Positions 17,593 to 18,204 of a stretch of 64,000 nucleotides of DNA are shown here, piece after piece (positions within the stretch are counted from its first letter, which is position 1; every line of letters starts with the position of its first letter). The translations under genes were made by a program, and so were the position numbers. The notes below the pieces were generated by a model. That model was given only the letters and a program-made list of their open reading frames with translations. It was not told the DNA's origin and ran no database searches. Origin of the DNA: Escherichia phage Ec_Makalu_002; sequence record MN709127.1; one strand, written 5' to 3'.

Positions 17593-17795
17593 TTACATGT
17601 AGGGCAATGCGGTTCTTTAATATAATACCCGTCTGTCTTTGGAACACTAACAGGAGCGGTTTTTATATTGTATTCAGTGAAACAACGAAAACAAGTTACG
17701 TTTTCTACAGACTGACGTTTAACCCAATCGCCGGAATATAGATCATTTTTATTTGCCATATTCAACCACCACAATATTGATATCTGGAGTAGCAA
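17565..17795 (-). CDS. Cys-rich small protein (zinc-ribbon-like)
   Basis: 76 aa; CFRC...CPTCKC. Confidence 0.4.
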   Translation of the reverse strand: MLLQISILWWLNMANKNDLYSGDWVKRQSVENVTCFRCFTEYNIKTAPVSVPKTDGYYIKEPHCPTCKCRLYWSHL

Positions 17796-18204
17796 TATTA
17801 ATGATTTCTTCTACGCATTCCCACTCAAGGCCACCGATACCGCAACCGATTTTAGGGATATAGAAAGGCTGTATAGCACCTTCAAAAACATCATTGAGAG
17901 ACTCAAATCCTTTCAGGATAGCACTATATTCAGCATTTGGACCCGGTCGGAATTGGGTATAGAGATTCACCCCACACCAGTTATAACCATTAACTTGATG
18001 AGTCCAGACACTAAACCCACCCAGCTTTTCTACCTTACCGCGAGAAGTTTGCTTGTCAATCTCTAACGCTTGCGGGAACTCTTTTGCGATATCCGCAGCA
18101 ATACCAGCGCCCATAGTATGAAAACAATTACAACCATGAATTAAATGACCGTTTCCTTGTTTAAACAGGGCGATGAGATCGCCCTTTACAGTATCAATAA
18201 TCAT
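17749..18204 (-). CDS. macro domain protein (putative ADP-ribose binding/hydrolase)
   Basis: 151 aa; HGCNCFHTMGAGIAADIAKEFP and PKIGCGIGGL motifs typical of macro domains. Confidence 0.65.
   Translation of the reverse strand: MIIDTVKGDLIALFKQGNGHLIHGCNCFHTMGAGIAADIAKEFPQALEIDKQTSRGKVEKLGGFSVWTHQVNGYNWCGVNLYTQFRPGPNAEYSAILKGFESLNDVFEGAIQPFYIPKIGCGIGGLEWECVEEIINIATPDINIVVVEYGK

Follow-up and report, generated by a model that had tools for sequence, protein, structure and literature searches.

The Krischvirus ortholog of T4 tk.4/adfM: a stand-alone macro domain with a probable anti-DarT2 function and a predicted glutamine-type active site

What function should be assigned to the small macro-domain protein encoded by Escherichia phage Ec_Makalu_002, and does it act against the ADP-ribosylating defences of the host? 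The window, that is, the whole stretch of 64,000 nucleotides that was analysed (sequence record MN709127.1), belongs to a Krischvirus, an RB49-like T-even phage. The initial annotation, made from the letters alone, had proposed a 151-aa protein with two macro-domain motifs in the early region, and both the length and the motifs were indeed confirmed in an ORF that runs from ATG to TAA, stop codon included in its coordinates (Table 1). This ORF lies on the minus strand, whereas no strand had been stated. The first motif, HGCNCFHTMGAGIAADIAKEFP, corresponds to residues 23-44 of the protein and the second, PKIGCGIGGL, to residues 118-127. Part of the answer was already known: the protein is 100% identical to a GenBank CDS with identical coordinates, labelled "macro domain protein" (QHJ73040.1), and an anti-DarTG2 role has been assigned to the T4 ortholog. 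We consider it likely that the Krischvirus tk.4/adfM ortholog is an early-expressed stand-alone macrodomain ADP-ribosyl glycohydrolase that opposes DarT2 by SCO6735-type catalysis.

Table 1. Features of the tk.4/adfM locus, in coordinates of the window.
Feature	Position	Strand	Basis
tk.4/adfM ortholog, stand-alone macro domain CDS	17749..18204	-	ORF list, Pfam, AF2, Foldseek, T4/RB49 identity, GenBank
Codons H23-G24-C25-N26-C27; N26, invariant macro-domain Asn	18124..18138	-	Family alignment; SCO6735 roles (PMC9411070)
Codons M31-G-A-G-I-A36; first glycine-rich loop, predicted to bind ADP-ribose/phosphate	18097..18114	-	Family alignment; MGAGIA/MGKGIA loop of TARG1 and DarG
Codons N80-L-Y-T-Q84	17953..17967	-	Alignments to DarG, TARG1, SCO6735 and PhiKZ; PMC9411070
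Codons P117-K-I-G-C-G-I-G-G125; second glycine-rich loop, predicted to bind diphosphate	17830..17856	-	Family alignment; TARG1 and DarG alignments
Ribosome-binding site GAGGT, 8 nt 5' of the tk.4 ATG	18212..18216	-	Sequence reading; RBS annotation in Ec_Makalu_003
Candidate promoter for the vs.1-vs-tk.4 string: AATGCTTGACT (-35 overlapping a MotA-box-like TGCTT), 17 nt, TATTAT	19212..19245	-	Consensus scan, 10/12

Profile, fold and motif all identify the protein as a macro domain. The Pfam Macro profile (PF01661) was matched over its entire length (positions 1-118 of 118) at E 7.6e-7, with 29.5 bits for a gathering score of 22, and PHROG 335 was matched at E 2e-62. The AlphaFold2 (AF2) model displayed a mean pLDDT of 96 and a pTM of 0.91. 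When this model was submitted to Foldseek, more than 40 solved macro domains were matched at a probability of 1.00 (TM 0.63-0.79), including TARG1, DarG, Poa1p, BT1257 and SCO6735 (TM 0.70-0.79), and the three-layer alpha/beta/alpha macro fold was thus recovered. Both glycine-rich loops are conserved in the alignment of 63 homologs from which all family counts given here were taken: M31, G34, A36, P117, I119, G120 and G122 are invariant, while G125 is found in 62 of the 63 sequences and G32 in 57. Profile search, structure prediction and inspection of these loops were among the checks proposed with the initial annotation, and all three bore out its macro-domain claim. The PADLOC DarG model was matched in its macro part only (positions 3-141 of 329). 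Comparison with the RB49 ortholog gave a dN/dS of 0.11 (12 synonymous and 5 non-synonymous changes); tk.4 is under purifying selection.

Sequence comparison identified this gene as the syntenic ortholog of T4 tk.4/adfM. Its product is 45% identical to T4 Tk.4 over the full length (152 columns, E 2e-45; 151 versus 155 aa), which falls within the range of the flanking orthologs tk, vs, vs.1 and regB (26-53% identity to T4), and gene order is conserved; identity to RB49 Tk.4 reaches 97%. The minus-strand block tk / three small ORFs / tk.4 / vs / vs.1 / regB indeed has the same order and strand in T4, RB49 and Ec_Makalu_003, which makes the early-region placement reasonable. The stop codon of tk.4 falls within the beginning of the small ORF that follows (ATG 17759-17757), and translational coupling of the two is therefore suggested. 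Upstream, the regB/vs.1 intergenic gap holds a sequence that we tentatively regard as the promoter of the vs.1-vs-tk.4 string, a call made by pattern match (consensus scan and sequence reading). The 'terminator' that the Ec_Makalu_003 annotation places in the 5'-terminal part of the coding sequence (18163-18184) was treated as a prediction artefact, because this 7-bp hairpin has no U-tract and lies in the stretch that encodes the conserved KGDLIALF motif.

The protein is closer to Vequintavirus proteins (69-70% identity) than to T4 Tk.4 (45%). A xenologous replacement on the Krischvirus side was rejected, since synteny is intact and the neighbours are equally diverged from T4; transfer of a tk.4-type gene into the Vequintavirinae is likely. 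Homologs were found in 2732 of 50,697 phage records. A homolog from Pelagimonas (P0098), a single case, stands alone in a setting of housekeeping-type genes, none of which is DarT-like according to Pfam.

The initial annotation had proposed a counter-defence or regulatory hydrolase acting on DarT products, on Thoeris signals or on the phage's own ADP-ribosylation. Its DarT branch gained support from T4, where knockout of the ortholog, related by synteny and 45% identity, confers DarTG2 sensitivity; the Thoeris and regulatory branches found no support. The DarT proposal is no longer novel, as it has already been reported for the T4 ortholog. A transposon screen on a DarTG2 host singled out tk.4 as the only T4 gene required there, and its clean knockout proved DarTG2-sensitive; the gene was renamed adfM, for anti-DarT factor Macrodomain (bioRxiv 10.1101/2025.11.20.689424). 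This evidence comes from one preprint and consists of genetics only. T4 without adfA and adfN stays DarTG2-resistant, and an extra factor had been predicted from this resistance. In Ec_Makalu_002, adfA and adfN (30.3) would lie outside the window. In our literature search, no link between DarTG2 and Krischvirus or RB49 was found. From a biochemical point of view, SCO6735 takes dT-ADPr off DNA but leaves dG-ADPr in place, and it relieves the toxicity of DarT (PMC9411070). Another phage macrodomain, PhiKZ gp104, likewise clears DNA in vitro of the ADPr that DarT2 has attached (Cell Rep 2026, PMC13309987). We infer that Tk.4-type proteins, including this ortholog, act enzymatically on dT-ADPr DNA.

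In the mechanism that we propose, the DarT2 of host DarTG2 systems would transfer ADP-ribose onto thymidine of single-stranded phage DNA, with replication blocked as a consequence. With its two glycine-rich loops, the phage macrodomain would bind this ADP-ribose and then cleave the ribose-thymine bond, releasing free ADP-ribose and intact DNA, so that replication could go on. Catalysis would probably be of the SCO6735 type and not of the DarG/TARG1 lysine type: with Asn26 holding it in place, Gln84 would orient the distal ribose and the transition state, while the reaction itself would be carried out by a water molecule positioned by the backbone.

The residues on which this proposal depends are strongly conserved. 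G24 and N26 are present in all 63 homologs and H23 in 61; H23 and G24 correspond to His24 and Val25 of SCO6735, and N26 is equivalent to SCO6735 Asn27 and PhiKZ AdfM Asn23. Position 84 is Q in 62 of the 63 family members and K in one, and it corresponds to the catalytic Lys of TARG1 (K84), DarG (K80) and PhiKZ AdfM (PTK), as well as to SCO6735 Gln85. This equivalence was drawn from sequence and profile alignments together with a published structure-based alignment, in which SCO6735 Gln85 pairs with TARG1 K84 and DarG K80 and the SCO6735 loop is 5 residues longer (PMC9411070). A 7-sequence MAFFT alignment and single-sequence phmmer searches gave a different picture, with 'NMIGQH' of SCO6735/BT1257 as an insertion and the phage 'NLYTQF' opposite 'GIYKDS'/'GMKTGS'. 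That pairing was set aside for the family-profile alignment, in which the phage NlYtQ is paired with the NMIGQ of SCO6735 and BT1257, because the latter agrees with the structure-based alignment and with the unambiguous alignments to TARG1, DarG and PhiKZ. In the profile alignment, the phage family shows a gap of 5-6 residues after the Gln relative to SCO6735 and BT1257. The loop from Q84 to Y93 comprises 8 residues in the window protein, the same length as in TARG1, and 23 of the 63 relatives have loops of 10-14 residues after the Gln. The second glycine-rich loop is aligned to 'PRIGCGLDRLQW' of TARG1 and to 'PLGVGNGGLDW' of DarG. Substitutions in characterised relatives point to the same residues: SCO6735 Q85A is dead and N27S nearly dead (PMC9411070), and PhiKZ AdfM N23A is impaired (PMC13309987). 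Read from these alignments, the active site of the Tk.4 family would be the Q84 and N26 arrangement that is essential in SCO6735, and not the lysine of DarG and TARG1.

Other functions compatible with a macro domain have to be weighed against this reading. It is unlikely that small-molecule ADP-ribose processing is the main task of the protein, whether as an ADP-ribose-1''-phosphate phosphatase, an O-acetyl-ADP-ribose deacetylase or a degrader of immune signals or toxins derived from ADP-ribose, with DarTG2 protection as a secondary effect. Database labels speak in its favour (RefSeq, 'phosphatase / A1pp motif'; PHROG 335 and several GenBank records, 'phosphatase' or 'Poa1p-like'), but 'phosphatase' is inherited from an old name of the domain and not from an assay. 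The source of these labels is the yeast ADP-ribose-1''-phosphate phosphatase Poa1p (6LFQ), which the family profile does match (E 1.5e-12) and which shares the N-terminal H.CNC....G.G(I/V)A motif and the fold (Foldseek TM about 0.70). It differs, however, by its 180 aa, an rmsd of 4.7 and the lack of a T-Q motif, with Ser-Ser where the phage family has T83-Q84 (T4 Tk.4 alignment). Moreover, the sole known phenotype of any family member is DarTG2-specific (bioRxiv 10.1101/2025.11.20.689424). No KptA/Tpt1-type source of Appr-1''-p is named within window positions 1-31790 in the Ec_Makalu_003 annotation, where many genes are 'hypothetical'.

We hold it to be distinctly improbable that the protein mainly reverses protein or RNA ADP-ribosylation, by erasing the marks of host ART toxins or by adjusting modifications of the Alt/ModA/ModB type that the phage itself makes. 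ADP-ribosyltransferases are indeed encoded by T-even phages, but Alt, ModA and ModB modify arginine, and no macrodomain is known to cleave arginine-linked ADP-ribose. Besides, no ART gene adjoins tk.4 in T4, RB49 or the window. TARG1 and SCO6735, the closest solved relatives, hydrolyse Glu-linked protein ADP-ribose in addition to DNA adducts, which favours such a role; DarG, however, acts on DNA only (PMC9411070), and the toxin behind the T4 phenotype modifies DNA. Finally, it is very improbable that protection is non-catalytic, through binding and inhibition of DarT2 or sequestration of ADP-ribosylated DNA or of ADP-ribose: the canonical lysine of DarG and TARG1 is indeed a Gln here, and catalytically dead SCO6735, DarG and TARG1 inhibit DarT in vitro by interaction, SCO6735 most strongly, but the Gln-type SCO6735 is faster than DarG on dT-ADPr-DNA and needs its Gln for catalysis (PMC9411070), the near-invariant Q84, N26, H23 and both Gly loops fit an active enzyme, and the 151-aa protein has no counterpart of the C-terminal DarT-binding domain of DarG (DarG model positions 2-139 of 338).

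Removal of ADP-ribose from thymidine by SCO6735-type catalysis is thus the reading that we retain, and it is of practical relevance as DarTG2 systems are present in pathogenic E. coli and in other hosts. An intact tk.4/adfM may serve as a marker, RB49-like therapeutic or environmental phages that carry it being predicted to resist DarTG2. A bolder and rather doubtful extension is that the AdfM of Tk.4 type is an independently recruited, lysine-free macrodomain of the Gln type (SCO6735/ALC1-like) and not a captured DarG. Its substrates would be broader than those of DarG, namely dT-ADPr DNA plus protein- and RNA-linked ADP-ribose, possibly with direct DarT inhibition, and several ADP-ribosylating defences would be blunted. 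If this were true, DarTG2 would be only the first to be noticed of the defences opposed by the Tk.4 family, which is widespread, as about 5% of the phage genomes sequenced carry a homolog.

Among known macrodomains, the nearest neighbour is uninformative as to substrate. In the family-profile search, BT1257, SCO6735, TARG1, DarG and Poa1p scored almost alike (49-59 bits), and the substrate cannot be read from similarity because the family is equidistant from these five proteins. T4 Tk.4 shares with the window protein the motifs HGCNCFHTMG, NLYTQF.PGPN.EYSA and P.IG.GIG, as well as the position between the tk-proximal small ORFs and vs; it differs by GAGIGKG in place of GCGIGGL, and by its genus (Tequatrovirus versus Krischvirus). 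The Gln-type, ALC1-like SCO6735 (Streptomyces coelicolor, PDB 5E3B) and BT1257 (Bacteroides, 2FG1) are likewise stand-alone proteins (about 150-180 aa) that lack a partner toxin. They share the Gln at the TARG1-K84/DarG-K80 position and conserved H-x-C-N and GCG.(A/G)GG motifs. A Gln at that position together with a locking Asn characterises the Gln type, to which the aligned Q84 and N26 would assign the window protein. Identity to it is, however, only about 23-24%. SCO6735 has Val25 where Gly24 is found here, its 'mobile loop' after the Gln is 5 residues longer and contains Lys89 and Lys93, both absent from the window protein, and it is a bacterial housekeeping or DNA-damage protein, not a phage counter-defence.

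Human TARG1/OARD1 (4J5R/4J5S) was the top Foldseek match (E 5e-11, TM 0.76, 28-30% identity); the two proteins are of the same size, and the loop that follows the catalytic position is equally short in both. The Lys84/Asp125 dyad of TARG1 is missing here: Q84 replaces the lysine, and the position of D125 holds no Asp, G124-G125 being found where TARG1 has D125-R. TARG1 also reverses DarT-made dT-ADPr (PMC9411070). Both SCO6735 and TARG1 use protein substrates as well (PMC9411070), and DNA is perhaps not the sole target of the Tk.4 type.

The DarG2 macrodomain (T. aquaticus 5M31/5M3E, M. tuberculosis 5M3I) has the same fold (TM 0.77-0.79), was the best single-sequence PDB match of the window protein (7e-8), has the conserved Asn and Gly loops, including the GGL.W ending, and shares the predicted substrate, thymidine-linked ADP-ribose on ssDNA. 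Its Lys80 ('PTK') is nevertheless Gln84 ('YTQ') in the window protein. A DarG or antitoxin mimic was considered and rejected: the protein scored 51.2 bits on the NCBIfam DarG equivalog NF048014 (model positions 2-139 of 338), for a cut-off of 250, it lacks the catalytic Lys and the C-terminal DarT-binding domain, and no darT gene lies beside tk.4, the neighbours of which are vs and small phage ORFs. Calling the T-even Tk.4 a 'DarG homolog' hides the missing catalytic lysine.

PhiKZ gp104, the AdfM of chimalliviruses (PMC13309987), is also a stand-alone phage macrodomain that counters DarTG2, and PHROG 335 includes both proteins. It differs from the window protein in several respects: identity is 26% (E 4e-7), with barely detectable similarity to T4 Tk.4, and gp104 has retained the DarG-type lysine ('FPTK'), shares 39% identity with Mtb DarG and reaches 138 bits on the NCBIfam DarG model, versus 51 for the window protein. 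It is imported into the phage nucleus, a structure absent from T-even phages, and its activity, unlike that of the Tk.4 type, is proven in vitro (PMC13309987). PhiKZ gp104 and Tk.4 are separate macrodomain lineages under one name, and AdfM covers two mechanistically different types, the Lys-type, DarG-like PhiKZ gp104 and the putative Gln-type Tk.4.

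The open reading frame of the tk.4/adfM ortholog, which encodes the window protein, was found where the initial annotation had placed it, together with the two peptide strings quoted from it. A ribosome-binding site, GAGGT, precedes its ATG by 8 nt. The proposal that it encodes a macro-domain protein was borne out by both profile and structure comparisons. Indeed, Pfam Macro (PF01661) matched over the entire profile with 29.5 bits (gathering score 22), PHROG 335 matched with an E-value of 2e-62, and the NCBIfam and PADLOC DarG models were matched in their macro part only; the conserved glycine loops were also present. 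An AlphaFold2 model, built with 63 homologs as input (mean pLDDT 96, pTM 0.91), retrieved from the PDB with Foldseek TARG1 (E 5e-11, TM 0.76) and the DarG proteins of Thermus and Mycobacterium (TM 0.77-0.79), as well as Poa1p, the Thermosipho DarTG fusion, BT1257 and SCO6735. The dN/dS ratio of the gene versus its RB49 ortholog was 0.11.

Over the 3.4 kb around the gene, identity is 99.5% with Escherichia phages Ec_Makalu_001 and 003 and 97% with RB49, where the gene is named tk.4; the window therefore belongs to Krischvirus (Straboviridae). A 100% identical protein is annotated at the same coordinates in Ec_Makalu_003 (QHJ73040.1, "macro domain protein"), while other records use the labels "phosphatase", "Poa1p-like" or "RNase III inhibitor". 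The gene order matches that of T4 (tk, three small ORFs, tk.4, vs, vs.1, regB), and T4 Tk.4 is 45% identical to the window protein over its full length. As the flanking orthologs are themselves only 26-53% identical to their T4 counterparts, this divergence of tk.4 is ordinary vertical divergence. Spacing to the neighbours is tight: vs, upstream, ends just 15 nt before the tk.4 start, and the tk.4 stop codon shares bases with the ATG of the small ORF that follows. The gene thus lies closely packed among co-directional genes of early type. The two small ORFs directly downstream, whose starts and stops overlap one another and tk.4, are rich in Cys and contain paired motifs of the CxxC type (e.g., CRCVRCG...CSNKGC and CFRC...CPTCKC); judged from these motifs, they look like small zinc-ribbon proteins. 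In the regB/vs.1 gap, a sigma-70-like element, whose -35 (TTGACT) is overlapped by a MotA-box-like TGCTT, could be a candidate early or middle promoter driving vs.1-vs-tk.4. A hairpin labeled a "terminator" in the Ec_Makalu_003 annotation is probably a prediction artefact, as it lacks a U-tract and lies across the codons of the conserved KGDLIALF.

Features in and around the tk.4/adfM ortholog
Feature	Coordinates	Strand	Description
tk.4/adfM ortholog	17749-18204	minus	ATG at 18204, TAA at 17749-17751; 151 aa
Small Cys-rich ORF	17350-17568	minus	
Small Cys-rich ORF	17565-17759	minus	
T4 nrdC.11 homolog	20544-21275	minus	Uncharacterised enzyme-like gene, same early block as tk.4; labeled "nucleotidyltransferase" (RefSeq) and "uncharacterized 38.9 kDa protein" (Makalu_003)
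Sigma-70-like element	19245-19212	minus	AATGCTTGACT + 17 nt + TATTAT; pattern match only
7-bp GC-rich hairpin	18163-18184	minus	GGGCGAT-CTC-ATCGCCC; within the 5' end of the tk.4 CDS

Homologs were present in 2732 of 50,697 phage records. Beyond Krischvirus, the closest relatives were found in Vequintavirinae (AlexBoehm, 70%, and EduardKellenberger, 69% identity), other Straboviridae being well below these values (45-50%). In AlexBoehm (MZ501048.1, 3501-3959), the gene lies amid unrelated hypothetical genes and does not adjoin tk or vs, which suggests lateral transfer of a Krischvirus-type tk.4 into rV5-like phages. Two unannotated records, MG065662.1 and MG065664.1 ("Campylobacter phage A142" and "A132"), carry homologs with 67.5% and 35% identity, values that match those of E. 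coli Vequintavirus and of Salmonella/E. coli Felixounavirus-type phages; possible explanations are wrong host labels or contaminant records. BFVD matches to the model included much longer homologs in Acinetobacter phage 133 (tk.4, 245 aa), Escherichia phage SUSP2 and Erwinia phage MM7 (both 260 aa), which must carry an extra domain, and a Marseillevirus SNF2-family protein of ALC1-like architecture, whose macro domain shares 39% identity with the window protein. In one bacterium, Pelagimonas, the homolog is a stand-alone chromosomal gene with no DarT neighbour.

A role against DarT, also put forward in the initial annotation, is supported by the T4 ortholog and was already published there, so that tk.4 is a known gene, annotated and with a published orthologous function. 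In a T4 transposon-insertion screen on a host expressing DarTG2, whose DarT2 toxin ADP-ribosylates thymidine in ssDNA (dT-ADPr), tk.4 was the single significant hit; a clean knockout was sensitised to DarTG2, and the gene was renamed adfM ("anti-DarT factor Macrodomain"), that work proposing that its product enzymatically strips ADP-ribose from DNA (bioRxiv 10.1101/2025.11.20.689424). This agrees with earlier work in which T4 devoid of both adfA and adfN (gene 30.3, encoding a NADAR enzyme that acts specifically on the guanine adduct of DarT1) was still DarTG2-resistant. No literature on Krischvirus or RB49 with DarTG2 was found.

From a mechanistic point of view, what we add is the typing of the active site. 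Invariant or nearly invariant residues among the 63 members comprise H23, G24, N26, C27, M31, G34, A36, D50, N80, Y82, T83, Q84, P117, I119, G120, G122, G125 and W128. The key position is Q84, whose alignment partners are lysines: the catalytic Lys84 in TARG1 ("LITK") and, in both Mtb DarG and PhiKZ gp104, the lysine of "PTK". This position is Gln in 62 of the 63 members, and T4 Tk.4 shares "NLYTQF". The remaining homolog (P0021, 48% identical) has Lys within "NLYTKYW", a natural Q-to-K swap suggesting that the two active-site types can interconvert inside one family. A characterised lysine-free precedent is Streptomyces SCO6735, in which Gln85 takes the structural place of those lysines. The Q85A mutant is inactive; N27S is almost inactive too, Asn27 being the residue that locks Gln85 in place, and a backbone-held water is the proposed proton donor. 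On DNA, the enzyme clears dT-ADPr more quickly than DarG or TARG1 do but does not remove dG-ADPr, and it rescues cells exposed to DarT (PMC9411070). With its observed fold, orthology and conserved site, the window protein is most likely a Gln-type glycohydrolase, whose substrate and chemistry we infer for this lineage: acting as a stand-alone macrodomain, it would erase the thymidine-ADP-ribose left by DarT2 on replicating phage ssDNA.

Reversal of protein ADP-ribosylation is also biochemically plausible, as both SCO6735 and TARG1 perform it. However, the phage's own Alt/Mod marks are Arg-linked and are not known to be removed by macrodomains. Degradation of ADP-ribose-derived signals, put forward for phage Macro domains in general terms in the literature, has no specific support here. 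Macrodomains are reported to inhibit DarT through interaction, but a purely non-catalytic role is unlikely, the catalytic-type residues being strictly conserved. The "phosphatase / Poa1p-like" function is a historical label; Poa1p lacks the T-Q motif, and nothing annotated within window positions 1-31790 would make Appr-1''-p.

The Gln-type window protein resembles SCO6735 in its H23-G24-C25-N26 and GCGIGG elements, but has a loop of TARG1 length instead of the five-residue-longer "mobile loop" of SCO6735; longer loops occur in 23 of its 63 relatives. Unlike DarG, the macro-domain antitoxin of DarT, it has no C-terminal DarT-binding domain, and no darT gene adjoins tk.4 in the window. By contrast, PhiKZ gp104 is clearly DarG-like (39% identity to Mtb DarG, lysine retained), with 138 bits on the NCBIfam DarG model, where the window protein reaches 51 and T4 Tk.4 30; gp104 strips DarT2-installed ADP-ribose from a TNTC oligonucleotide in vitro, and N23A is impaired (Cell Reports 2026). 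Similarity between T4 Tk.4 and gp104 is marginal (BLASTP E 0.005 across 23 residues). The name AdfM was given independently to T4 Tk.4 (preprint, 2025) and gp104 (Cell Reports 2026), a nomenclature collision between proteins with a different catalytic residue. This typing of the active site shows that "AdfM" spans two separate macrodomain lineages, the T-even type not being a lysine-type DarG mimic.
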